The translations under genes were made by a program, and so were the position numbers. The notes below the pieces were generated by a model. The model searched no databases and was not told where the DNA came from. It was given only the letters and a program-made list of their open reading frames with translations. Positions 37,480-62,430 of a stretch of DNA of 62,430 nt are shown one piece after another. Origin of the DNA: an uncultured Bacteroidota bacterium (GTDB lineage Bacteria; Bacteroidota; Bacteroidia; Chitinophagales; Saprospiraceae); assembly GCA_903836265.1 (NCBI GenBank), contig CAILQK010000258.1:1-62430 (forward strand), read 5' to 3'. The first letter of the stretch is position 1; every line of letters begins with the position of its first letter.

Positions 37480-40400
37480 TTACTGTACCTCCACCCATTT
37501 CCCCGGCACACTGGCCCGAATCCTGTTGTCGTACATGGCAGCACAGGAAACCGGGGCCAGGTAGTATCTGCCGGAATAGGCAGCATTGAGCAATACCCTG
37601 TACACCTTCGGACGCTGATTGTCCGAATCGCCACCGCGGAATGGCAGATCAAAATAGGTCATCACGCGGTCATCACGTATATCCTGATACTCGGGGGTTG
37701 AGGTGCCCGGGGTCGAATCACCCGCTGGATTCATCCGGGTATTCACAATTTCCCATCCGGAAGGGAACACCTGCACAAGCGCCATCTCGTTGAAATCAAA
37801 GAGCAGGTCGGCAGAGCGCCTCACCGTAACTTCGGCTACAAAATCTGTTCCCTGTGCAATCTTTGACGGATCAATTTCCGCACCTGCCATATTGGTATAT
37901 CGCACGTTGAGTGCTACATTTGATGCCTCCGTCTGGCTGCTGCCCGTTGCTGTACGACCGCTGTACACTGTACGCACGTAAAGTTTTTTCCCGGAAGTAT
38001 TTCTGACAGTTACAGCACCCGACTCGCCGGTGATATTGTATATATAATATGGTGTACCGGAGGCCACCGGAATATCCCGGGCGCCTGCCTTCAGGGTAAA
38101 TGCCGGTTTTTCATTGAGGGCTCCACCCTGAATAAACCTGGCCAGTGCCCTCAGGCTGGTAGCAACTTCCTGTGTTGAATACCAGGCTGACACATTTCCG
38201 ATCATGGAAGCCACCTGTACTGCCACCTCTGCACCCCGCTGATTATCGCCTGCCACAGTCAGTGTTTCCAGCCTGAGTGCCAGATCGCGAAGACTGGAAC
38301 CATAGGTTTCGCCCCACCAGTCGTAATTGAAAACTTTGGTGGATCTGTCGTTCAGCAGATCCCTGGCCGCCTCTTTTCTCCCGGTAAACGCATAGGCAGC
38401 AGCGAGCAGGTTGGAGGAAGTCTGATATTTGTTCCGTGTTTCCTTCAACCTGTTCATACCCGGCACATCGGGTTTTTGAGCAAGCGCCAGCGTGTATAAT
38501 CTGTATGCCTGAGCCAGTTCCACATCATGCAGACTGCTCTCATCCCGGTTATCGTTGAAAACAGGTTCCCAAAGCCGGGAAGTTTTAGTCTGATAATCAA
38601 GCCATCTGGAGAGGAGCTGATCGGGAACAGAATAGCCTTTGGAACGCGCCTCCAGCAGAAAATGCCCTGCATAGGTACCGGCCCAGTCTGCAGCCTGTGT
38701 TCCTCCGGGCCAGTATGAAAATGCGCCGGAAGGAAGCTGGAACGACTGCAAACGTGTTATTGCAGCTCTGATATTCCGCTCGGTTTCCTGCTTCTGCTGC
38801 ACAGTAAGTGGAGCAATTATATCAACATACAGCTGTGGGAACGCTGCGGAAGTTACCTGCTCGACACATCCGTGCGGGTAAGTAACAAGATAGTCCAGCT
38901 GTTTCGACAGATTCACCGGGGGAACACTGCTGATCTCCAGATTCACACTGGTGATATCCGTCAGATCATCCGGCCTGGCGGGCATAGTCCAGGTCTTGCC
39001 CGGCTCCACCACCTCCTCTGCAATGCGGGTAACAGCAGGATTGGGATTTCTGATTTCCACTTCAATATCGGTGGTAGCCGACTCTCCGCCCCCTTCGGCC
39101 GAGACATTGAAACGGGCCCTGCCGGTTTTCTGGCCCACTTTCAGATTAAAAAAGGCCATTTTATTTCCGGGTTCACTGAACGTCAGGCTGGTGAATCCGG
39201 CTCCTTCCACACTCACCAGTCCGGATTTCTCCCTCACCGAAACAGTGGCATTCTGCACATTTTTTTCCATGGCGAATACATCCACCGGCAGCCTCAGTGT
39301 TTCACCGGGGCCGAGTATACGCGGGAGTGTGGGCAAAATCATGAGTGGCTTCCTGACTGCAACTGTTTTTTCGGCACTGCCATGAGCACCGGCAACTCCG
39401 GCCCTTGCGGGGTCGCACAAAACGGCCATCACCCGCACCGAACCAACATAATTGTCAATTTTAACCCTGTGCCGTGCAACCTGCCCCTTGCCGAGACGGA
39501 ATGGTCCCAGATGTATTACGGCAGGTTTAAACCGGTTCACCGAGGCCGGTTTGGCCTTCACATTGATACCATCGCCCCCGACAGCAAGAATTCTGTCGAG
39601 TTCAATGGCATAGGCGCCGAGCACAAAATCATACACATCCCAGGTTTTCACACCAAGAGCCTCACGGGCGTTGAATGCCTCCCAGGGATCGGGCGTCCTG
39701 AACCGGGTAAGATCGAGCAGCCCTTCATCCACAATATCAATGGTATAAGTACAGTCCTTGCTCCCAAGCTCCCGGAGCGAGACATTAAAGTATTCACCCG
39801 GCCTGACCGTTTCCGGCATATCAATCAGAGCCTGAAGTCGTGAAGACTGATTTTCCACCTGTACAGGTATTACGCCGTACATACGTATCGGCAGATCATT
39901 GACTGTCTGGGCATGTGGTTGCAGCAGGCTCACGTGTGCATACACCGTGGGTGCCATGGAGGCGTCGGCCCTGAAACTGATGAGGTTATCTCCTGCTTTG
40001 GCATCGAACCAGAAGTGCTTCGCTACCCTGCTGCCCGTTTCAAGTGTAAGCAGAATACGGCCCTGTTCGCTGGCCGGCACTTTCAGCGTCACCATTTCAC
40101 CGGAGTTGTATTTTTCCCTGTCTGCAGTGAGCGGGAGCATGGCTGCCGCATTTCTGCTCGCCATGTCGTACTGGTCTTCGGGGTATCCGGTCCAGAAGAA
40201 ATCGCCTCCGGCATGTTCACCCCTGGCATCAGTAACCCGTACCAGATATCTGCCCCAGCCGGCCGGCCGCACCTTCCATGTTGCCTGCCCGCGACTGTTT
40301 GTCACAAGCTGAGCCTGTGCGATGGCGTTATTCATCTCGCCATAATTAAAATTACCCACCCCGCTATTGTCATTTTCGTCCCACCACCAGCGCCAGTCCA

Positions 40401-43146
40401 CCCGGTAAAGCGCCACATTCAGCGACTGGCCGGCCAGCGGGTTGCCATTTTTGTCAACCATGGCAAAAGTGACATCTCCGCCTTTTTCGTCGAATATTTT
40501 TGATCCCCAGCGGTTCGCAGGAATAAACACACCCACATAGCGATCGTAGGGAGAAATCTCAATATTGAAATTGTCTGTGCTGAAATCACCACCCTGTTCG
40601 AAGGCACGCACCTTGAAGTTGGCCGTGAGCTTGCCCGGCGATTCCTTCATCTGGCCAATTTTAAGCGGAACTTTGGCCGTTCCATTCTGATCAACCATTC
40701 CGTCAAAAAGCACCTCAGGTTCCGAGGAAAAATATCGTGACGGGTCGTCGAAACAAAAATCCCGGTAGCGGACAAACCCGGTTTTTTTGACATTGACCGA
40801 CATTTCAACTTTGGCCTTGAGCCCCCTGGCCACGGCGCCATGCAGCCAGTTGACACGCAGTGAACCCTGCAATCCGCTGTCATCATCACCGGTAGCGAAA
40901 TCACCCGATTCCAACACATTTTTACCGAAATTGAGATCGAGTTTGAGACGATTGGGCTTTACCGTTTCAATTTTAACCGTTCTGGAGAAAGTTGCTCCGC
41001 CAACCATTACCTTGCACATCCAGTTTCCGGTGGGCGCATCGGCCCCTGTAGCGAAATAAAACGGGAATACTCCGTTGACGCCCTCTGTCAGCGTGCGGCG
41101 GAACTGCATGGCTCCGCGACTGTCAGACACTTCCATGGTTACGGGGTGCCCGACAGGCAGGCGGCCCGATTTGTCCTCCAGAACAAAATTCAGGAACAGC
41201 GAGTCTCCGGGGCGCCATACTCCCCGCTCTCCATAGATGTAGCCCCTGAGTCCACGCTGAGGTTCCACCCCTGCCACGTCGAAACGGCTCAGCGACAGTG
41301 CACCGCCATCAGCCATGCGCAGGTATCCCCTGCTGGCGCCATCACTGGCAACCGCCAGGAAAGGCCGGGTGACAAGCCCTTCAAGCATCACCGTTCCGTC
41401 CTCGCCAGTTCTGGATTTCAGGATAGTCTGTAACTGATAATCAAGCAATTCTATTTCAAGGTTGCTGATCGGACGGGTGGTATGAAGGTCATTCACAGCC
41501 AGAAAGAGTGATCCGTCGCGACCAAGCTTGCCCGTGAGACCGAGATTGCTCACAAACACATTGCGCCGCGCAAAGTGTTCCGCGTTGTAATACTCCAGGG
41601 CACAAGGTTCACTTTGTCTCCCCCAGTCATACGCAGCCGGGTTGTCATTGTCATCGTCGGCCCACCACCACGGATCATCATCAGCCCAGTAAATACCGCG
41701 ATCACCTCCCATAATACTCCTCTTCACACCATAATCGTCGGTTTGTTCCCGTTCAAAGGCCGGTACCGACTGACCGCTGCTCCCACAGGAAGTATAGTCG
41801 CGGCGGAAAGCAACCCTGACCTGATAGATAGCCCCCGGGTCTTTCCGGATCATCTCACCCAGATCGAAGGCATATCGCTGCCACACACTTTTAATGGCAT
41901 TTGGATTCAGGGCTGTCAGATCAATTTTCTTCTGAAGAACAATTTTTCCAACCCGTTCGAGTTCCTGACTGCCTTCCAGCTCGTTGACCTGCAGGAATTG
42001 CAAAATGTTTGAATTGTAAATTTTGAAAATCTCCACATCCACGGCATTCAGTCCGACAGCCTCAAAAGGGAAGAGTACCGAACCATTCTCCTGTGAAGGG
42101 ATAATGGAACCCCTGCCCACCAGCCTCACCTCAGGGCCGAGATCCTGAAAGTTCAGTGCAGCCGTATAACCTGCAGTCAGATTTTTACCCGCAATATTGC
42201 GCACCGCCACATCTATGGTCAGGGTCTGCTCTCCAACAATTCGCTGGGCCGGATAAATGCGGACAAAATTGCCGTTTACAACAAATTTGAGATCTCCCTG
42301 GTATTCACTCAGGCGGATGAGACCGCTCAAATCCTGACCGGGGGTAACGGGGTCACTGAAATTGACAAGAATATACTGCTCCTCCAGCTGTACGACTGCT
42401 GCCGAAAGTACCGAGAACTCGTCCCGGGGAGCCACAATCTGGATATCCTCGCCCGTCTGACCGGAACCCAGCGATTCTCCGTTCCAGGAAAGTTTCACTT
42501 CCGACCGGTCGGCCGAGCGCCTCACGCCCTCTACCGTCCAGGCGTATGTCCTGTTACCTTCGCCCGGCGTCCAGCTCACCTGCAGTGCCCTTCCGGCCTG
42601 GCGGGCCAGCAGCATCTTTTCCACTTTGACAGCATCACAGGGCTCATTGATGTGCACAACTCCTGTCACCTTTTGAACAGACAAATCGTCGGGTTCACTG
42701 TTGATTCCATCGCGCTGAACACGAAAAGAGAGTTCCCTGACTCTGAAATCATATTCAAATATGTCTGCATATCCGGGCACATCAGGATAAATTTCATCTA
42801 GTGCCAGCCTGGCGGAGTATTTTACCCCGACAGGAAGCGGTTGTTCGGGCCTGAACAAAATAGTATGATCATCCTCCCATACTGCACTGCCCCTGATTGC
42901 AGGCGAGATACTGAATATCCGGGCCGGTACCGGCTGGCCGGTCTGAGCCTTGCTCACAGCAGGATTGACAAACCTGACCCGAAGCGGTTCTGAACTGTTG
43001 ACAGCACCACCCGTATAGGCATATACATAACGGGCCACCGTCTCATAATAGCGTTCGTCTTTCACAATGCGGCTGACCTGGTACCAGTAAACAAGGGCAG
43101 AAAGGGCGAGAAGGGATACAACAAGGGAAGAAAGGTGTTTTTTCAT
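37480..43146 (-). CDS. bacterial alpha-2-macroglobulin family protein with an intact thioester motif
   Basis: 1888 aa. YPHGCVEQ (CxEQ thioester) is encoded with CVEQ at 38857..38868. It has an MG-domain-rich beta architecture and an N-terminal signal-anchor helix without a lipobox Cys. Confidence 0.9.
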   Translation of the reverse strand: MKKHLSSLVVSLLALSALVYWYQVSRIVKDERYYETVARYVYAYTGGAVNSSEPLRVRFVNPAVSKAQTGQPVPARIFSISPAIRGSAVWEDDHTILFRPEQPLPVGVKYSARLALDEIYPDVPGYADIFEYDFRVRELSFRVQRDGINSEPDDLSVQKVTGVVHINEPCDAVKVEKMLLARQAGRALQVSWTPGEGNRTYAWTVEGVRRSADRSEVKLSWNGESLGSGQTGEDIQIVAPRDEFSVLSAAVVQLEEQYILVNFSDPVTPGQDLSGLIRLSEYQGDLKFVVNGNFVRIYPAQRIVGEQTLTIDVAVRNIAGKNLTAGYTAALNFQDLGPEVRLVGRGSIIPSQENGSVLFPFEAVGLNAVDVEIFKIYNSNILQFLQVNELEGSQELERVGKIVLQKKIDLTALNPNAIKSVWQRYAFDLGEMIRKDPGAIYQVRVAFRRDYTSCGSSGQSVPAFEREQTDDYGVKRSIMGGDRGIYWADDDPWWWADDDNDNPAAYDWGRQSEPCALEYYNAEHFARRNVFVSNLGLTGKLGRDGSLFLAVNDLHTTRPISNLEIELLDYQLQTILKSRTGEDGTVMLEGLVTRPFLAVASDGASRGYLRMADGGALSLSRFDVAGVEPQRGLRGYIYGERGVWRPGDSLFLNFVLEDKSGRLPVGHPVTMEVSDSRGAMQFRRTLTEGVNGVFPFYFATGADAPTGNWMCKVMVGGATFSRTVKIETVKPNRLKLDLNFGKNVLESGDFATGDDDSGLQGSLRVNWLHGAVARGLKAKVEMSVNVKKTGFVRYRDFCFDDPSRYFSSEPEVLFDGMVDQNGTAKVPLKIGQMKESPGKLTANFKVRAFEQGGDFSTDNFNIEISPYDRYVGVFIPANRWGSKIFDEKGGDVTFAMVDKNGNPLAGQSLNVALYRVDWRWWWDENDNSGVGNFNYGEMNNAIAQAQLVTNSRGQATWKVRPAGWGRYLVRVTDARGEHAGGDFFWTGYPEDQYDMASRNAAAMLPLTADREKYNSGEMVTLKVPASEQGRILLTLETGSRVAKHFWFDAKAGDNLISFRADASMAPTVYAHVSLLQPHAQTVNDLPIRMYGVIPVQVENQSSRLQALIDMPETVRPGEYFNVSLRELGSKDCTYTIDIVDEGLLDLTRFRTPDPWEAFNAREALGVKTWDVYDFVLGAYAIELDRILAVGGDGINVKAKPASVNRFKPAVIHLGPFRLGKGQVARHRVKIDNYVGSVRVMAVLCDPARAGVAGAHGSAEKTVAVRKPLMILPTLPRILGPGETLRLPVDVFAMEKNVQNATVSVREKSGLVSVEGAGFTSLTFSEPGNKMAFFNLKVGQKTGRARFNVSAEGGGESATTDIEVEIRNPNPAVTRIAEEVVEPGKTWTMPARPDDLTDITSVNLEISSVPPVNLSKQLDYLVTYPHGCVEQVTSAAFPQLYVDIIAPLTVQQKQETERNIRAAITRLQSFQLPSGAFSYWPGGTQAADWAGTYAGHFLLEARSKGYSVPDQLLSRWLDYQTKTSRLWEPVFNDNRDESSLHDVELAQAYRLYTLALAQKPDVPGMNRLKETRNKYQTSSNLLAAAYAFTGRKEAARDLLNDRSTKVFNYDWWGETYGSSLRDLALRLETLTVAGDNQRGAEVAVQVASMIGNVSAWYSTQEVATSLRALARFIQGGALNEKPAFTLKAGARDIPVASGTPYYIYNITGESGAVTVRNTSGKKLYVRTVYSGRTATGSSQTEASNVALNVRYTNMAGAEIDPSKIAQGTDFVAEVTVRRSADLLFDFNEMALVQVFPSGWEIVNTRMNPAGDSTPGTSTPEYQDIRDDRVMTYFDLPFRGGDSDNQRPKVYRVLLNAAYSGRYYLAPVSCAAMYDNRIRASVPGKWVEVQ

Positions 43147-53961: not shown

Positions 53962-54990
53962 TTATTGGTCGCCAGGACGTGTAATTACGCTTCTGGCGGC
54001 TTTTTTTTCGGCCAAATGGGCTACTGCAAACGACGTGACAGCTGCTGCAACTGCCCAAAACCAGAGCGGGGCATCAATCAGGCGCGACCCGACAGCCTTC
54101 ACTCCCCGGTAAACCAGCGGATGAAGTAGATACAGAGCGTAGGAAACATCACCCAGCCATGCCAGTATCCGGCCTGAAATCCCCGGAAGTTTTCCGGTGC
54201 CGAATATCCATCCTGTAACGGCCACTACTGTACTGGCGGAGAGCACGACCATACTCGTCCCGGTGACAAGCAACCGTGGATCATTTCCTGTGGGCATTAA
54301 AAAAAATACTGTTATGCCCGCCAGCAGCAATAATCTCCAGTACTTTCGGGGAATCACCTTAAGGTTCCCGGAGAACACCGAAAGCCCTGCCCCGGTAATA
54401 AAAAACCATGCATGACCAGGCGCCTGCACGTAAAAGGGCCACCATACCGCCTGTGAAGTGCCGGCTGCCGAAAACGGCGGGAAGAAGGCGCGGGCCAGAC
54501 CAAAGGCAACAGCGGCCATCCAGAGAAGCAGAAAAATCCACTTCTTCCGCTCTCCTGTCCAGAGAAGCAGCGGAAAGAAGCAATAATAAACCAGTTCGCA
54601 CCCGATTGACCAGGCGCCGGTGGCAATATCGGCCGATGCATCGGCAAACCCGAACAGGCCAGTGAGGTTGAGCAAAATTGTTTGCCAGCTTCTGGAGTGT
54701 TCATCAATGGCCAGCGTTGCAATGGTGGCCAGCCAGAGCATCGGAAAAATGCGTCTTGTTCTCCGAAGTGCGAATGATTTCCACGCGTGCGGGAGCGTAC
54801 CTGCATATCTGTGAGCGAGCGCCATTCCACTGATAACAAAAAATGACGATACGGCATAGACCCCGAGTTTACCCTGGGGAGTATCGGCATTCCAGGTTCC
54901 GGTTGTCCACTTGTCGTAATGGAATACCAGTACCGCCAGTGCCATCAGCCCGCGGAGATAATCGAGCTGAATCAGTCGGTCACGTTCCAC
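53962..54990 (-). CDS. acyltransferase family 3 integral membrane O-acyltransferase
   Basis: The N-terminus LDYLRGLMALAVLVFHY is typical, and about 10 hydrophobic helices follow. The GTG start overlaps the upstream HAD gene by 19 nt. Confidence 0.8.
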   Translation of the reverse strand: MERDRLIQLDYLRGLMALAVLVFHYDKWTTGTWNADTPQGKLGVYAVSSFFVISGMALAHRYAGTLPHAWKSFALRRTRRIFPMLWLATIATLAIDEHSRSWQTILLNLTGLFGFADASADIATGAWSIGCELVYYCFFPLLLWTGERKKWIFLLLWMAAVAFGLARAFFPPFSAAGTSQAVWWPFYVQAPGHAWFFITGAGLSVFSGNLKVIPRKYWRLLLLAGITVFFLMPTGNDPRLLVTGTSMVVLSASTVVAVTGWIFGTGKLPGISGRILAWLGDVSYALYLLHPLVYRGVKAVGSRLIDAPLWFWAVAAAVTSFAVAHLAEKKAARSVITRPGDQ

Positions 54991-55586
54991 TGACGGAGCG
55001 TTTCGAGCAACTGGGCGGGACTTTGAAAATGAATTCCGTGAATCCCGTGATCTTCGGCGGCACTGACGTTGTGCAGGTTGTCATCAATAAAAACTGCATG
55101 TTGCGGTGTTACTCCGTACCTGTCGAGGAGGAGTTGATAGATATCCGGGAATGGCTTTCGGGTACCTTCATCGCCTGAAACGACAATACCCTCAAACCAG
55201 TGGAGAAAGTCATACCGGCCGAGCGCCACCGGGAAAGTTTCACCGCTCCAGTTGGTGAGTGCCAGCAGCCGTTGTTTTTTCTGATCCCGGAGGCTGCGCA
55301 GAATATCAACCGTGTCGTGAATTGGTCCGCCGAGCATATCTTCCCACCTGTCATAATAAGTGCGAATTTCCATTTCCCAGTCGGGGAACTCGCGTACCAG
55401 CAGGTCTGTTGCCACGGCCAGCGGGCGTCCGGCATCCTGTTCAATGTTCCAGTCGTGAGTGCAGATATTCCGGAAGAAATAGTCTCTGCGATCACTGTCA
55501 GGGATAACCTCCCGGAAAACATACTCGGGGTTCCAGTCAATGAGCACGCCGCCGAGGTCGAAGATAATGGTGTTGATCTGTTTCAT
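54972..55586 (-). CDS. HAD family phosphatase, YihX-like (DxG variant of motif I)
   Basis: IIFDLGGVLIDW, LTNWS and FIDDNLHNVSAAEDHG are present. Its ATG overlaps the stop of the upstream 1013-aa gene (ATGA). Confidence 0.75.
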   Translation of the reverse strand: MKQINTIIFDLGGVLIDWNPEYVFREVIPDSDRRDYFFRNICTHDWNIEQDAGRPLAVATDLLVREFPDWEMEIRTYYDRWEDMLGGPIHDTVDILRSLRDQKKQRLLALTNWSGETFPVALGRYDFLHWFEGIVVSGDEGTRKPFPDIYQLLLDRYGVTPQHAVFIDDNLHNVSAAEDHGIHGIHFQSPAQLLETLRQWNVTD

Positions 55587-58500
55587 ATTATTTTGCCTGT
55601 TTCCCTGAGTACACGCTGCATTTCGCTGTACTGATTGTCGAGCAGCCGCTTCAGGTCGTACCGTTCAAATTTAAGGTTGAAGTGATACTTGTGATTTTCG
55701 TGATGGTCTGTGTTGGTTGGGATAAAGCCCAGGAAAGGAGCGTTCCAGCGGATCCTGCGTTTGCCGGCCTTGTCGTACAGTTCATCCCAGGGAATCTCGA
55801 GGTATTCGGCCTTGGGGTAATAAAGATAAATACCCTTTAAATTCCGGATGATATCAATAGCGATTTTCCGCTCCGGCTCGAGATTCTCGTCGGCAAATTC
55901 GCTGATTTCCCGGTGATACAGCCTTACCTGATCGGAGTACCTTCTGTCAGCAATTCGCTCCCTGGCCCCGGCGAGATCGTAAAGAGCAGGTTGCGCGGCA
56001 TGCAGCGCCCTCAGAACGGCGATGGCATCGAAACCTGACGGACTTGTATTGTAATCTTTACCGTTTTCGGATATATCTATCCAGTCGAACTTGACTTCTT
56101 CTGTCAGTTCACGCCATACGAGGTCCAGATAACGAGTATCAGGATACAGTTTATAATTACTGACAGCTTCGTACAGGAGCAGTTCCACATCGGTTCGACG
56201 CCCGTTTTCTCCTCTTTTGATTTTTTCATATTCAGGAAGAATCCGTTTGTGAAAAAGATTGATGGCAATCTGTGCTCTGATATCTTCCTCGGTGACGGGC
56301 ACTCCGGCCGCCTGCATGGTATCGAGAATATACTTCAGTGCCCCGTGAGCATCAAACCCCAGAGCCAGGCTGTCGGGATCCGCTGCAAGTGTGTGCGGAT
56401 TATGAGCCAGCCATGTAAGCAGTCCGTCGCCCGTAAGTTCCCTGAGAGCCTCTTCCAGAAAAACCATTCCTCTTTCCGGGCGTGCCTTTTGTGCGATAAC
56501 ACGCCTTTTCAGACAATCAATCAGGATTCTGCGCGCATCGAGCCGGTTCATTTGCCTGAAATCAGTGAAAGAAAGGCCTTTGACTGCCTTTTCATAGTTC
56601 TTTTCAGTATCGCGGATGAACTCAAGATAAACAGTTTCATGCAGATTTGGCTGAATTTTCAGCCAGGCATGTTCTCCTGCGGCATCACTGACAATCTTGT
56701 GTACAATTCCGTACGCGTCGAAGTCACAGGCAGCACATTCGGGACAAGGAATCAGGTTGCCGTTGTCATCGAGGGTAAACCACCTGACTGTTGCCACTTC
56801 CGACTCCGGCGGAACGTTGAGAAGACCGGGGAGCAGATACTCGAGCGCCAGACGATAAAACGAGTTCCCGTGACCGAGCGGATCCGTATCTCCGAATACA
56901 TGGGCTCCCAGCAGGCAGGCATAAGTAAACCTCACCACCGATTCCCGCACATCCGTGAAAGGCCTGCTTCTTCTTTCATCTTCTGCCAGCTGATTCCTGA
57001 GCGCCTGTCTTTTGGCAAGCAGGCTGTAGAACAGGTCTTCCCGAAGCATTGCCCTGCTTTTGACCACCTTGCCGGCTGTTTCCTGCTCCATACTCTCGAG
57101 CATATAGAGAAGTTCCTGAATTTCCCCCAGCAGATCGTGGCGTCCGAGCGGAGTAAACTGAAAGTGGCCATCCACTACCGACACCTTCTGAAGCCAGCTG
57201 TATTTGCCACCGCCACACGATTCAATAACTGCGACCTCAATGAGTTCTTCTGAAGGATGGACAATACGGCAGACCTTCAGTGTATTTTCGAGGATAACAC
57301 GCAGTTTCATTCGATTGTCGGGCACCTGCTCAGCATGCTTTCCCGTATGACGGATTGAATCGTTGGGGAGATTGTAATAAAGCCGGAGTGCGGCATCAGA
57401 TATACTTTCGGAGGCGATAGCGAGGTTGTGTCCGGCTGTTGAGGAAGGGCATTTCCCTTTTGTCTGATAATCCCGAAGGCGGCTTGCGAAAAGCAGAATG
57501 TGCTGAAGAACCCGGTCGTTCCCTTCCAGTGCCGTTTCCATGGCTCTGGCCGGAGTTTCCTGCTGGATGCAGGTAATCAGCAGATATTCGTACAACTGGG
57601 CCGACTGGGCGTCTATCTGCCTTCTGACCTGATCGCAAAAAGAGAATGCCAGTACGGGATTTTTCACCGCAAGTGCATCCCTGGCGAGCAGGAGATACCT
57701 GCGAAAATCATTCTGCTGAGCCGGCGAAAGCAGTCCGGCAACTCCTCCGTCTTCGGACGCTGCCGACACCGGTACAATAATATCATCGCCGGGTATGAAG
57801 AATGGCGGCGCCTTGCTCTCGTCGCGGCTGCCGGGAGTGAAGTGGTAGTAGTCTCTGATGAAAATACTCCGCCAGTCGGGATCAAGCTGTTCTTCGGAAA
57901 GACTTTCAACAAGATATCTGAGGTCAGACTGCAGCGGAGCCGCCTCTTTTTCGAGTTCGGTGACCGACACAGCCGACAGGCGCATTTGTTCCCGCAGATG
58001 GCCGAAGGCGTCTTCAATATCGAGCGACAGTCTCCTTGCCGGAACATCCTGGATCAACTTTTTCAGGAGTGCCAGCAGCGGCGCGTGGTTGATACGGTCA
58101 GTCTGGGCCAGCAGGCGTTCTCGCAGATCGGCGACAGTGACCGGCAGTTCAATGTGTCCGGGCGGAACAGCACTGGAATCGGGGGCAGCGTGAATAACCC
58201 GGACAGCATTGACAGCGACGCGCTGAAGTTGCCTGTTGCGGTCAATATCCGGATTTTCAATTGACTCGGGAGCCGGGAGCAGTTCGGGAAACGGCCTCAG
58301 GCGTGCGGGTGTGTCGCATGCGCGGGCGCGGGCAGTGGCTATCTGCAGGGCAGGCCTGACCGGCTGACTTTTCACAGCCACATCATACTCGAACCTGGTT
58401 TCAGACTTGTCCTCATAATTCATGGAAAGCAGCGCGATAAACAGTCCGGCCGATTCGATAAAAGCGGCAGCGCTTGCTCTGTATTCTTCGGGTGGCACCT

Positions 58501-58624
58501 GACTGCCTTCCCAGAATTCGACGTCAGCCGGCTGCAGCGACAGCGCCAGCTGACGCTGCAAATCCAGGGCAGTCTGCTCGTCGGCAGCATCGCGGGACAG
58601 GAAAATACGCAGTACAGTACTCAT
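55583..58624 (-). CDS. 1013-aa protein with an N-terminal TIR_2-like domain and a large uncharacterised helical region
   Basis: Clean ATG-initiated ORF with no signal peptide. Residues 5-85 read RIFLSRDAADEQTALDLQRQL..VEFWEG..VPPEEY...FIESAGLFIALLSMNYEDKSETRFEYDVA, which follows the TIR_2 strand/helix pattern. I recognised no P-loop or other catalytic motif in the remainder. Confidence 0.7.
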   Translation of the reverse strand: MSTVLRIFLSRDAADEQTALDLQRQLALSLQPADVEFWEGSQVPPEEYRASAAAFIESAGLFIALLSMNYEDKSETRFEYDVAVKSQPVRPALQIATARARACDTPARLRPFPELLPAPESIENPDIDRNRQLQRVAVNAVRVIHAAPDSSAVPPGHIELPVTVADLRERLLAQTDRINHAPLLALLKKLIQDVPARRLSLDIEDAFGHLREQMRLSAVSVTELEKEAAPLQSDLRYLVESLSEEQLDPDWRSIFIRDYYHFTPGSRDESKAPPFFIPGDDIIVPVSAASEDGGVAGLLSPAQQNDFRRYLLLARDALAVKNPVLAFSFCDQVRRQIDAQSAQLYEYLLITCIQQETPARAMETALEGNDRVLQHILLFASRLRDYQTKGKCPSSTAGHNLAIASESISDAALRLYYNLPNDSIRHTGKHAEQVPDNRMKLRVILENTLKVCRIVHPSEELIEVAVIESCGGGKYSWLQKVSVVDGHFQFTPLGRHDLLGEIQELLYMLESMEQETAGKVVKSRAMLREDLFYSLLAKRQALRNQLAEDERRSRPFTDVRESVVRFTYACLLGAHVFGDTDPLGHGNSFYRLALEYLLPGLLNVPPESEVATVRWFTLDDNGNLIPCPECAACDFDAYGIVHKIVSDAAGEHAWLKIQPNLHETVYLEFIRDTEKNYEKAVKGLSFTDFRQMNRLDARRILIDCLKRRVIAQKARPERGMVFLEEALRELTGDGLLTWLAHNPHTLAADPDSLALGFDAHGALKYILDTMQAAGVPVTEEDIRAQIAINLFHKRILPEYEKIKRGENGRRTDVELLLYEAVSNYKLYPDTRYLDLVWRELTEEVKFDWIDISENGKDYNTSPSGFDAIAVLRALHAAQPALYDLAGARERIADRRYSDQVRLYHREISEFADENLEPERKIAIDIIRNLKGIYLYYPKAEYLEIPWDELYDKAGKRRIRWNAPFLGFIPTNTDHHENHKYHFNLKFERYDLKRLLDNQYSEMQRVLRETGKII

Positions 58625-58810
58625 AACAGGTTCGCAAATATACCGCGCAATGCGCTGAAAAGACTCAATGTATTACACATAAAATGAAGTAAAGAGGCTC
58701 AGGCGCCCTCCGGGCTTCAGGAAAAGACCTTACAGGGAGTCAAATTTGCCTGATTCTTACATTTATTTCAAGAATAGCTGATTAAATCCTGAAAGTTGGG
58801 GATAATGTTG

Positions 58811-58856: not shown

Positions 58857-59048
58857 ATGCGTACTGGCACAGTAAAATTTTTCAACACCACAAAAGGCTT
58901 TGGTTTCATCATTGACTCTTCCACCGGCGAAGAGATTTTTGTCCACGTAAGTGGCGTCGTAGGCGAAATTCGCCAGGGCGACACCGTTACATTCGAAACA
59001 CAGAAGGGCAAAAAAGGCGTGAATGCAGTTAATGTACAGCTTGCTTAA
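58857..59048 (+). CDS. cold-shock protein (CspA family)
   Basis: GTVKFFNTTKGFGFI (RNP1) and FVHVSG (RNP2). 63 aa. Confidence 0.9.
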   Translation: MRTGTVKFFNTTKGFGFIIDSSTGEEIFVHVSGVVGEIRQGDTVTFETQKGKKGVNAVNVQLA

Positions 59049-59079
59049 GCGCAGCTGACCTAATAAATATTCATTCCTG

Positions 59080-59113
59080 ACTCCGGGGGCTATCAGCCTC
59101 CGGAGTTTTTTTT
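59080..59113 (+). terminator. intrinsic terminator of the cold-shock gene
   Basis: A 10-bp stem (ACTCCGGGGG / CCTCCGGAGT, one G-U pair), a 7-nt loop, then TTTTTTTT. Confidence 0.7.
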
Positions 59114-60371: not shown

Positions 60372-60422
60372 GTTATCATACTTTTTTTAATCCTTTTTTA
60401 CAAGATTAAGGAAACAGCATCC

Positions 60423-60430
60423 TACCTTTG
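60423..60430 (+). promoter_or_regulatory. candidate -7 box (TACCTTTG) at the head of the carB leader
   Basis: Matches TAnnTTTG and lies 10 nt upstream of the uORF ATG at 60440. Confidence 0.3.
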
Positions 60431-60472
60431 TGCTCCGAAATGAAAAAACGAAACAACGTCTTTCAATTCGGC

Positions 60473-60518
60473 AAATGCCGGAAACTGGGTTCCTGACGCC
60501 AGTTTCCGGCATTTTTTG
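60473..60518 (+). terminator. strong intrinsic terminator or attenuator hairpin immediately upstream of carB
   Basis: GCCGGAAACTGG (60477-60488), a 10-nt loop, then CCAGTTTCCGGC (60499-60510). This is a perfect 12-bp stem followed by ATTTTTTGTTT. Confidence 0.6.
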
Positions 60519-60541
60519 TTTCTAAAAGGAAATTCTTGCAC

Positions 60542-62430
60542 GTGCGCGACCAGTCTATCAATACCGTTCTGATTATCGGATCCGGCCCGATTATTATCGG
60601 CCAGGCATGCGAATTTGATTACTCGGGCTCTCAGGCCAGCCGCTCTCTGAGAGAAGAGGGCATCAAAGTAGGCCTGATCAATTCCAATCCGGCCACTATC
60701 ATGACCGATCCTGTCACGGCTGATTATATCTACCTGCGCCCGCTGACACCCGAGAGCATCGAAAAAATTCTGCAGGAGCATCAGGACAATCCGGATTTGC
60801 CGGCTTTCGATGTGGTACTCCCCACCATGGGCGGACAGACTGCACTCAACCTGGCCATTGAATGTGAGAAACTGGGTATCTGGGAACAGTACAACTGCCG
60901 GATGATTGGCGTTGATACAGCCGCAATTGAACGCACCGAAAATCGGGAAGAGTTCAAAAAACTGGTCAACGAGCTCGGACTGAAAGTAGCTCCCTCTTTT
61001 ATTGCCAACTCCTTCCTCGAGGGCAAAGAGGCCGCACAAAAAATCGGTTTCCCGCTTGTGATACGCCCCTCCTACACTCTTGGTGGAACCGGAGGCGGTT
61101 TCGTCATGAAGGAAGAAGAGTTTGATGAAGCCCTGAAGCGTGGACTGAATGCCTCCCCGACGCACGAGGTACTCGTTGAAAAGGCAGTACTGGGCTGGAA
61201 AGAATTCGAGCTGGAACTGCTCCGCGACCAGCACGACAATGTAGTAGTTATATGTACTGTGGAGAACCTCGACCCCATGGGAATACACACCGGCGACTCC
61301 ATCACCGTAGCTCCGGCCATGACACTTTCCGACACTTCCTATCAGGATATGCGCAATCAGGCAATCAAAATCATGCGCGCACTGGGCAATTTTGCGGGAG
61401 GCTGCAATGTGCAGTTCGCACAAAATCCTGAAAATGAGGAGCTTATTGCCATAGAAGTAAACCCGAGGGTATCGCGATCTTCTGCACTGGCATCCAAAGC
61501 AACCGGCTATCCTATTGCCAAGATAGCAGCGAAGCTGGCCATCGGATATACCCTCGACGAACTGAAAAACCAGATTACCAAAACCACATCGGCCCTGTTC
61601 GAGCCCACACTCGACTATGTAATTGTAAAGATGCCGCGCTGGAATTTTGAAAAATTCCACGGTGCCGATACACGTCTTGGTCTGCAGATGAAATCGGTGG
61701 GAGAAGTCATGGCAATTGGCCGCAGCTTTAACGAGGCCATGCAGAAGGCCTGCCAGAGCCAGGAGAACAACCGCGCCGGACTCGGTGCAGACCGGAAGGA
61801 ATGGATGAGCACGGAAGATATTCTCACCCGTCTCGAGCTGGTCAGCGACGACCGGATTTACCGGGTCAGAGATGCCCTCCGCCTGGGAATTGCCTCCAAA
61901 ACGGTCCAAAAGCTCACCCATATTGATCCCTGGTTCATCAATCAGATCAAGGAGCTGGTGAAGCTGGAAGACCGTCTGCTGAAGTTCAACGTGGCCGACG
62001 ACCTGACGCCCGAGTTCCTCATGGAGCTCAAGAAAAATGGCTACTCGGATGCACAGATTGCCTGGGTAATGCGTATCAATGAAGAGGATGTAACCCGCCG
62101 ACGCAAACAGCTGGGTATTCGCAGGGTTTACAAGATGGTGGATACATGCGCTGCAGAATTTGAGTCGAAAACCAATTATTTCTATTCCACGTTCGACAGC
62201 AAAAACGAGAGCCGCCGCTCCGACAAAAAGAAAATAGTGGTGCTTGGCTCGGGCCCCAACCGTATCGGTCAGGGCATCGAATTCGATTACTGCTGCGTAC
62301 ACGGAGTATTGGCCATCAAAGAGGTGGGTTATGAGGCAATTATGGTCAACTGCAATCCGGAAACAGTTTCCACGGATTATGATCTTGCCGACAAACTGTA
62401 TTTCGAGCCGGTTTACTGGGAGCACCTCGA
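60542..62430 (+). CDS. carB: carbamoyl-phosphate synthase large subunit (5' partial, runs off the window)
   Basis: The plus-strand translation gives (M)RDQSINTVLIIGSGPIIIGQACEFDYSGSQASRSLREEGIKVGLINSNPATIMTDP... and stays open to 62430 (...NCNPETVSTDYDLADKLYFEP). It is absent from the ORF track because it has no stop in the window. The start is GTG 60542 or TTG 60536. Confidence 0.9.
   Translation, partial: MRDQSINTVLIIGSGPIIIGQACEFDYSGSQASRSLREEGIKVGLINSNPATIMTDPVTADYIYLRPLTPESIEKILQEHQDNPDLPAFDVVLPTMGGQTALNLAIECEKLGIWEQYNCRMIGVDTAAIERTENREEFKKLVNELGLKVAPSFIANSFLEGKEAAQKIGFPLVIRPSYTLGGTGGGFVMKEEEFDEALKRGLNASPTHEVLVEKAVLGWKEFELELLRDQHDNVVVICTVENLDPMGIHTGDSITVAPAMTLSDTSYQDMRNQAIKIMRALGNFAGGCNVQFAQNPENEELIAIEVNPRVSRSSALASKATGYPIAKIAAKLAIGYTLDELKNQITKTTSALFEPTLDYVIVKMPRWNFEKFHGADTRLGLQMKSVGEVMAIGRSFNEAMQKACQSQENNRAGLGADRKEWMSTEDILTRLELVSDDRIYRVRDALRLGIASKTVQKLTHIDPWFINQIKELVKLEDRLLKFNVADDLTPEFLMELKKNGYSDAQIAWVMRINEEDVTRRRKQLGIRRVYKMVDTCAAEFESKTNYFYSTFDSKNESRRSDKKKIVVLGSGPNRIGQGIEFDYCCVHGVLAIKEVGYEAIMVNCNPETVSTDYDLADKLYFEPVYWEHL

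Follow-up and report, generated by a model that had tools for sequence, protein, structure and literature searches.

A TIR-headed helical-repeat protein of Saprospiraceae, with EAD11 as alternative head in distant relatives, as a candidate conflict-signalling protein

The DNA analyzed here (the window) is a stretch of 62,430 nucleotides, contig CAILQK010000258.1 of assembly GCA_903836265.1, from an uncultured Saprospiraceae bacterium. The gene under study is an open reading frame (ORF) of 1013 amino acids (aa) on the minus strand at 55583..58624, with an ATG start; both the ORF and the N-terminal translation reported for it in the original prediction were confirmed. Its product carries an N-terminal TIR domain on a large helical body with five internal repeats, and in distant relatives the same body is headed by EAD11. 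Bacterial conflict systems which are characterized by such an exchange of heads on a constant module have been described by Aravind's group, and by analogy the exchange points to conflict or cell-death signalling rather than to housekeeping. The explanation preferred here, held with about even confidence, is a cytoplasmic single-chain signalling protein of the conflict or programmed-death type, in which the TIR domain would be the NAD+-cleaving output on a constant regulatory body. The parts of the gene, from its N-terminal end, are as follows.

55583..58624, minus strand: complete ORF, 1013 aa plus stop codon; single-copy, mostly monocistronic among relatives
58175..58624, minus strand: TIR domain, residues 1 to ~150, from Pfam, Foldseek, the head profile and TIR-only relatives
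58388..58390, minus strand: codon of Glu79, putative catalytic glutamate, from conservation and alignment to Cat1
57728..58174, minus strand: helical linker, residues 151-299, with a low-confidence loop at 288-296; mean pairwise identity 0.44
57437..57727, minus strand: R0, residues 300-396, TPR-like, with the motif FRRxLLLAxDA...IDPQSAQLYEYLL
57134..57436, minus strand: repeat R1, residues 397-497, hairpin 478-492; hhalign probability against R3, R4 and R5 69-94%
56717..57133, minus strand: repeat R2, residues 498-636, invariant W615, hairpin 616-626; hhalign probability 90.6% against R3 and 76.6% against R4
56351..56716, minus strand: repeat R3, residues 637-758, E729-L-T-G732-D-G-x3-W738, hairpin 739-748; hhalign probability against R2, R4 and R5 86-92%
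56027..56350, minus strand: repeat R4, residues 759-866, E839...W848, hairpin 849-859; hhalign probability against R1, R2, R3 and R5 77-94%
55670..56026, minus strand: repeat R5, residues 867-985, E948...W960, hairpin 961-973; hhalign probability against R1, R3 and R4 75-91%
55583..55669, minus strand: C-terminal helical tail, residues 986-1013, and stop codon

The Pfam model TIR_2 (PF13676) matches residues 7-101 of the window protein at 17.9 bits (E = 0.0046) when the whole protein is scanned, and the first 120 aa alone reach 22.5 bits (E = 1.7e-4), both below the gathering threshold of 28 bits. The same model is matched by 40 of the 41 members of the main family alignment (E <= 0.01; best 2e-10), and many homologues carry a precomputed PF13676 match. 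A full-length structure model, built with AlphaFold2 from the 41-sequence alignment, was confident (mean predicted local distance difference test score, pLDDT, 86; predicted template modelling score, pTM, 0.71), with pLDDT values of 86-92 in the head. Beta-alpha alternation runs across residues 5-99 of the modelled head and is followed by a helix at 129-145. The predicted elements are betaA (5-10, IFLS), alphaA (13-29), betaB (35-37), alphaB (45-58), betaC (61-66), alphaC (74-86) and betaD (94-99), then a loop and the last helix.

In Foldseek comparisons with the PDB the head was recognized as a TIR domain with probability 1.00 and a template modelling (TM) score to target of 0.45-0.68, among the matches being MyD88, SPARTA TIR-APAZ, ThsB, TLR10, TRR-2 and TIR-STING. 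Comparison with a viral structure library gave folds of the TIR and nucleoside 2-deoxyribosyltransferase-like kinds. A profile made from 25 sequences of the head only identified the CRISPR-associated TIR NADase Cat1 as the best solved relative (E = 2.9e-4), followed by the TIR domains of MyD88, IL-1RAcP and TLRs; the E-values for Cat1, MyD88 and TLRs lie between 3e-4 and 1e-2. Profile and structure searches thus both find the TIR_2-like domain which had been proposed from the translation.

Besides Met1, only Ser10, Ser67 and Glu79 are invariant in the 25-sequence head alignment; in the 41-sequence alignment they are present in 39, 41 and 40 members, respectively. Ser10 is part of the FLSxD motif of betaA and Ser67 stands at the end of betaC. 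Glu79 aligns, in the comparison of hidden Markov models (HMMs), with the Glu of the Cat1 motif WCWDE, the canonical catalytic position, as had been suggested for the Glu of RFEYD. The canonical Trp at -4 from this residue (WxxxE) is missing and the family shows R-[WF]-E. These residues are taken as a conserved active-site signature of the TIR head, which is predicted to act as an NADase.

A head which is TIR-like but dead, left with a structural or oligomerization function on a helical-repeat scaffold, would account for the sub-threshold TIR_2 score of the window protein, for the loss of the WxxxE Trp and for the head being the least conserved part of the protein, less conserved than the body. 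It would also account for the full-length homologue P0087, in which Ala replaces the Glu at position 79 (VFWAAKQA); this could be a natural inactivation or an error of sequencing or assembly. Such a scaffold with a dead head is nevertheless very unlikely, because the three invariant residues are active-site positions and do not belong to the hydrophobic core. In addition, Glu79 and the catalytic Glu of Cat1 are aligned, and a ratio of nonsynonymous to synonymous substitution rates (dN/dS) of 0.10-0.15 in the head is still a sign of constraint.

TIR-only relatives recovered by exhaustive profile search cover residues 3-153 of the query, which extends the domain to about 150 residues from the ~95 of the original prediction. 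The closest of them are found in multi-TIR arrays with EAD2, STAND NTPases or SEFIR.

The head swap became apparent when 1.84 billion cluster representatives were searched exhaustively with an HMM, which gave 1199 matches at E <= 1e-3 and 72 at E <= 1e-30. Distant full-length relatives from A+T-rich lineages of Bacteroidota (~920-1000 aa) align with the body from query residue ~140-200 through to its C terminus. Of the first ten scanned, six carry Pfam EAD11 at the N terminus (E 7e-13 to 7.5e-6, each exceeding the gathering score of 26), and TIR-like heads are present in P0137, P0138 and P0157. Among all recovered module-bearing proteins the head was TIR in 134 and EAD11 in 20, while 20 had no assignment, several of which look like divergent EAD11 by eye.

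EADs are small non-catalytic adaptors, of which a core component carries one copy and an effector another (Kaur et al., PMC7159879). It is a signature of counter-invader systems that TIR, SIR2, nuclease or peptidase domains take the place of an N-terminal EAD while the C-terminal region stays constant (Kaur et al., PMC8195603). The family presents this arrangement, a constant module on which a terminal EAD is exchanged for an effector. That the body is common to EAD11-headed proteins favours a signalling or immune reading, and the swap, together with the company kept by the nearest relatives of the head, places the protein in the conflict and programmed-death signalling world of Kaur et al. 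In Haliscomenobacter hydrossis, EAD11 is found at the C terminus of proteins with LRR, AP-GTPase and COR domains, paralogues of which end in TIR (Kaur et al. 2021, fig. 6 source data). Since TIR and EAD11 occur both there and on the present body, the same pair decorates two different cores in this bacterial order.

In the model, everything after the head is helical except for five beta-hairpins, one closing each of the repeats R1 to R5. These repeats of ~110-135 aa are mutually homologous (hhalign probability 69-94%, E-values 1e-7 to 4e-5); in the same self-comparison neither the linker (125-299) nor R0 (300-396) was related to any of them. The repeat ends carry an invariant Glu...Trp pair (E468/W477, E729/W738, E839/W848 and E948/W960), with W615 in R2. 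Within the protein, conservation is highest in R0 (column identity 0.79 over residues 301-350, mean pairwise identity 0.62), which is retained even in EAD11-headed relatives, its motif being seen in P0141-P0168; the linker is partly common to them as well.

In R1 the loop E468-x2-G-G-G-K474-x2-W477 (~57194-57223, minus strand) is kept in all 41 sequences save for two with Ala at G472, and appears as NELAGGGK in the EAD11-headed branch. This degree of sequence conservation suggests a specific ligand or phosphate contact. A reading of the loop as a Walker A motif was rejected, since the model contains no fold of the P-loop NTPase type, the Lys is not followed by Ser or Thr, and the corresponding loops of R2-R5 are ordinary repeat elements.

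No Pfam family matched residues ~150-1013 of the window protein, 40 relatives or 20 distant relatives, nor was Pfam TPR matched among the 61 proteins scanned. Searches of NCBIfam, PADLOC and the sequences of all PDB chains gave no match to the window protein. A second model of residues 300-640 (pLDDT 88.9, pTM 0.84) resembled generic TPR, Sel1 and PPR solenoids of the PDB weakly (E = 0.009-0.2, TM 0.15-0.45), and in the whole model the body resembled generic solenoids alone (E >= 0.003, TM <= 0.45). More specific structural relatives, namely SAMD9 (probability 0.66, TM 0.10), Ski3, DSR2 and OGT-TPR, were dismissed as generic solenoid noise. Judging from the models, the fold class of the body is probably that of a TPR-like solenoid. 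The region had been described as having no assignable motif; this holds for known families, to none of which it maps in the window protein and 60 relatives, while the five internal repeats had been missed.

A total of 122 relatives were collected from 5.8 billion proteins. Nearly all are full-length (~1000-1040 aa) and 36-91% identical, and those with names belong to metagenome-assembled genomes (MAGs) of Saprospiraceae or Haliscomenobacteraceae. In GTDB contigs (one genome per species) 105 stretches encode a relative, of which 75 loci were kept. All 75 come from MAGs, which bear the labels Saprospiraceae, Lewinellaceae, Chitinophagales or Bacteroidota; cultured isolates, Haliscomenobacter and other cultured Saprospiria included, are absent from them.

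Compared with three close orthologues (L001-L003), dN/dS was 0.045-0.075 overall, 0.10-0.15 in the TIR domain, 0.015-0.05 in R0 and 0.036-0.069 in the repeats, values which are approximate because dS is ~1. On this substitution pattern the gene is judged to be real and functional and under strong purifying selection over its whole length. The protein evolves faster than PurL (42% vs 79% identity in the same pairs), at about the rate of TonB-dependent receptors. Two copies assigned to one MAG, F1F2.bin.152 (L013 and L038), encode proteins which are 79% identical in syntenic flanking DNA of ~75% identity; the syntenic flanks indicate a mixed bin of two related organisms. They were therefore not accepted as paralogues, and the gene is considered single-copy.

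The features next to the gene in the window are as follows.

53962-54990, minus strand: Acyl_transf_3 gene, next after the HAD hydrolase
54972-55586, minus strand: HAD-family hydrolase gene, 3' of the TIR-headed gene
58857-59048, plus strand: cold-shock gene, 63 aa (Pfam CSD, E = 2.5e-18), divergent from the TIR-headed gene
59079-59107: strong terminator-like hairpin, 13 pairs and a T-run, after the cold-shock gene

The end of the 1013-aa ORF, with its stop codon, and the start of the HAD gene have 4 nt in common (ATGA). Since the cold-shock gene lies within the 637-bp stretch which had been regarded as intergenic, the upstream region proper to the TIR-headed gene is only ~230 bp. A Bacteroidota -7 promoter box in it, TATATTTG (58635-58642, 10 nt upstream of the ATG), was rejected as a chance match because TAnnTTTG was present in none of 28 orthologues (60 nt upstream). 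A scan for sigma-70 promoters and terminators remained at background level, neither Rfam families nor tRNA genes were detected in the window, and G+C content and skew are not unusual. Further neighbours in the window are a 6-phosphogluconolactonase-like gene upstream and a second HAD gene, MutL and two rhomboid genes downstream. As had been noted, no mobile elements flank the gene, which is surrounded by housekeeping genes in an ordinary chromosome.

Two other ORFs of the window deserve mention. A bacterial alpha-2-macroglobulin of 1888 aa (37480-43146, minus strand; bMG3, MG2, bMG5, bMG6, bait-region, A2M, TED and bMG10) is ordinary though large. The 667-aa ORF at 60422-62425 (minus strand) has an odd, low-complexity-looking translation and is possibly a shadow ORF opposite a real gene of the plus strand which runs off the end of the window.

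The arrangement of neighbours seen in the window is preserved only in its own genus and, in part, in L009/L010. To compare neighbouring genes more widely, the 895 flanking ORFs of 76 loci were clustered de novo into families. The gene downstream of the TIR-headed gene is mostly convergent, and several clade-specific synteny blocks composed of housekeeping genes were recognized. The HAD and Acyl_transf_3 pair was rejected as a general partner, since it recurs only in the genus of the window and in L009/L010 (55% target identity); this linkage could be a coincidence or a lineage-specific functional link. An Acyl_transf_3 gene also adjoins a distant relative in L080. A recurrent upstream neighbour, encoding 411 aa (L012, 6705-7940, plus strand; equivalents in 12 loci of one synteny block, neighbour cluster 5), shows by eye an HD-like motif near the N terminus and, at the C terminus, a membrane region which recalls transmembrane effectors of the Pycsar type.

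A number of observations weigh against a role in conflict signalling. The neighbours in the window and the 75 loci are housekeeping genes (PurL, RidA, GT2 glycosyltransferase, PAP2-like, TonB-dependent receptor, M14 peptidase, MutL, rhomboid and HAD), which led to the rejection of a defence-island context, and any one neighbour family is present in at most 16 of the 76 loci. The EAD11-headed relatives too lie among housekeeping genes, and no EAD11-tagged partner adjoins them in L076-L079; homologue searches for this branch yielded 4 proteins each, and a metagenome scan for its contexts yielded one partial locus. Phage, plasmid and IMG/VR viral contig collections contained no homologues. None of the PADLOC-DB v2 defence HMMs matched at E <= 10. 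No NTPase (MoxR-vWA, STAND, GAP1 or AP-GTPase) was found in the protein or the examined neighbours. Unlike in typical fast-evolving phage sensors, no diversifying selection is seen in the body. The divergence of the protein tracks that of its syntenic neighbours (r = 0.41-0.96), and the gene is single-copy and vertically inherited in a Saprospiraceae clade. To these the Ala79 of P0087 must be added.

A physiological role would suit several of these features. The protein would then be a lineage-specific regulator or scaffold (in stress, development, filament biology or NAD+/nucleotide signalling) with the TIR domain as a regulated housekeeping hydrolase of NAD(P)+ or nucleotides, which agrees with the vertical, single-copy inheritance at stable housekeeping loci, the very strong purifying selection over the whole length, the absence from mobile elements and defence models, and the same-strand HAD phosphatase and Acyl_transf_3 genes downstream in the genus of the window and L009/L010. 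That linkage is, however, confined to a few close lineages. The body is common to proteins headed by EAD11, so far known only from conflict-system architectures, and the nearest TIR relatives are parts of multi-TIR, STAND, EAD2 and SEFIR proteins. Nor is the family universal in the lineage, given that cultured Saprospiria are missing from the 75 loci. A physiological role is regarded as unlikely. The original prediction had allowed for an immune as well as a lineage-conserved housekeeping protein: the survey of distribution bore out conservation within the lineage, with single-copy, vertical and partly syntenic inheritance, and revealed no defence islands, while the EAD11-headed relatives favour signalling or immunity.

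Under the preferred explanation, conflict-type signalling, the output would be the N-terminal TIR domain, with Ser10, Ser67 and Glu79 lining the NAD+ site as in TIR NADases. The solenoid would bind a conserved ligand or partner protein, and this binding would drive or release self-association. The TIR heads would then meet head-to-tail and form the composite active site which TIR NADases need. Cleavage of NAD+ would result in its depletion or in an ADP-ribose-derived signal, followed by growth arrest or downstream signalling. In the EAD11-headed relatives the body would instead recruit a separately encoded, EAD11-tagged effector. Cat1, ThsB, SPARTA TIR-APAZ and TIR-STING have the fold of the present head and, like it, a Glu at the catalytic position of alphaC, and all are activated by induced oligomerization. 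Activation of the present protein by oligomerization and its part in conflict are put forward here as predictions.

Another possibility is that the protein is a downstream hub or adaptor, recruited by homotypic TIR-TIR or EAD11-EAD11 contacts to separately encoded ROCO-like sensors, with the solenoid as a MyD88-like assembly platform or amplifier, with or without TIR catalysis. The LRR-AP-GTPase-COR proteins of H. hydrossis, which end in the same pair of domains, could possibly be its interaction partners through such contacts. The EAD principle predicts pairing of like EADs even when they are encoded elsewhere in the genome (PMC7159879, PMC8195603), and no adjacent partner gene would be required. 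High conservation of the body is expected if an endogenous partner is bound, and the head profile also matches the adaptor TIR of MyD88. On the other side, tblastn of the TIR and EAD11 heads against plasmids, a set which should include the Haliscomenobacter plasmids with two LRR-AP-GTPase-COR proteins, gave no match to their ROCO-like proteins, and the 75 loci include no genome of Haliscomenobacter or other cultured Saprospiria. That the Glu at the catalytic position is nearly invariant suggests a function beyond that of an adaptor. Such a hub is likewise regarded as unlikely. The conservation of the body and the lack of an NTPase and of a linked partner fit the hub and the physiological regulator almost as well as they fit conflict signalling. 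A bolder proposal, in which the ~860-aa body is an unrecognized NTPase-free core module whose TIR or EAD11 heads plug into ROCO-like sensors, as a MyD88-like hub with its own NADase fixed vertically in one Saprospiraceae clade, must be considered quite unlikely.

Among the closest known designs are the EAD- or effector-headed conflict proteins (Kaur, Burroughs, Iyer, Aravind, eLife 2020, 2021), such as EAD10-TPR-GreA/B-C-PIN and the VMAP, iSTAND and TERNS3 third components. They have in common with the present family a constant C-terminal region, an N-terminal slot for an adaptor EAD or an effector such as TIR, a body of helical repeats and an occurrence in filamentous lineages of Bacteroidota. 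They differ in that the body here belongs to a different, unmodelled family (R0 and five hairpin-terminated repeats) and is not accompanied by an NTPase, PIN, GreA/B-C, a MoxR/vWA operon or an adjacent second EAD copy. The systems of Kaur et al. are also rich in paralogues and vary rapidly, whereas this gene is single-copy, slowly evolving and vertically inherited. The LRR-AP-GTPase-COR proteins have the same alternative terminal domains in the same bacterial order, but at the C terminus instead of the N terminus; LRR, GTPase and COR are missing here and no pairwise sequence similarity was detectable.

DSR2, a single-gene antiphage protein with a SIR2 NADase head and a HEAT-like sensor body of ~700 aa, is similar in that an N-terminal NAD+-consuming domain (here predicted) and an all-helical repeat body form one NTPase-free polypeptide of ~1000 aa. 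Its head is SIR2 and not TIR, it is located in defence islands, and the similarity of its body (structures 8wy8 and 8wy9) is at noise level (Foldseek probability 0.11-0.15, TM 0.09-0.13). The TIR domains of Cat1, SPARTA, TIR-STING and ThsB are fused to CARF, APAZ or STING or stand alone beside ThsA, and none is joined to a solenoid like this one. The TIR domains of MyD88 and TLR adaptors are among the best matches of the head by both profile and structure, which makes homotypic TIR assembly plausible; animal adaptor TIRs lack the catalytic Glu, whereas this family conserves it. Thoeris is composed of the TIR protein ThsB together with ThsA, and no ThsA (SIR2/Macro-SLOG) neighbour was present in the window or the 75 loci; Argonaute, CD-NTase and CRISPR genes were likewise absent nearby. 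The TIR domain itself, and the design of a TIR or EAD on a constant module, were already known. What is new is a body without a Pfam, NCBIfam or PADLOC model or solved relative, with its five repeats, its freedom from NTPase domains and its vertical, single-copy inheritance.

Immune signalling in bacteria, plants and animals alike makes use of TIR domains, and new biology has come mostly from their fusion partners. The partner here is a large, well-folded and strongly conserved repeat module which accepts TIR or EAD11 and does so without the NTPase switch on which almost every EAD or TIR conflict core described so far relies. Should the module be a sensor or a hub, TIR activation would be controlled by a solenoid alone, and the EAD network would gain a new constant component. 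Its vertical, single-copy inheritance would then exemplify a conflict-type module which has been domesticated rather than shuttled between islands. If the protein is instead a physiological regulator, a catalytic-type TIR domain would have a role outside immunity, which is rare in bacteria.

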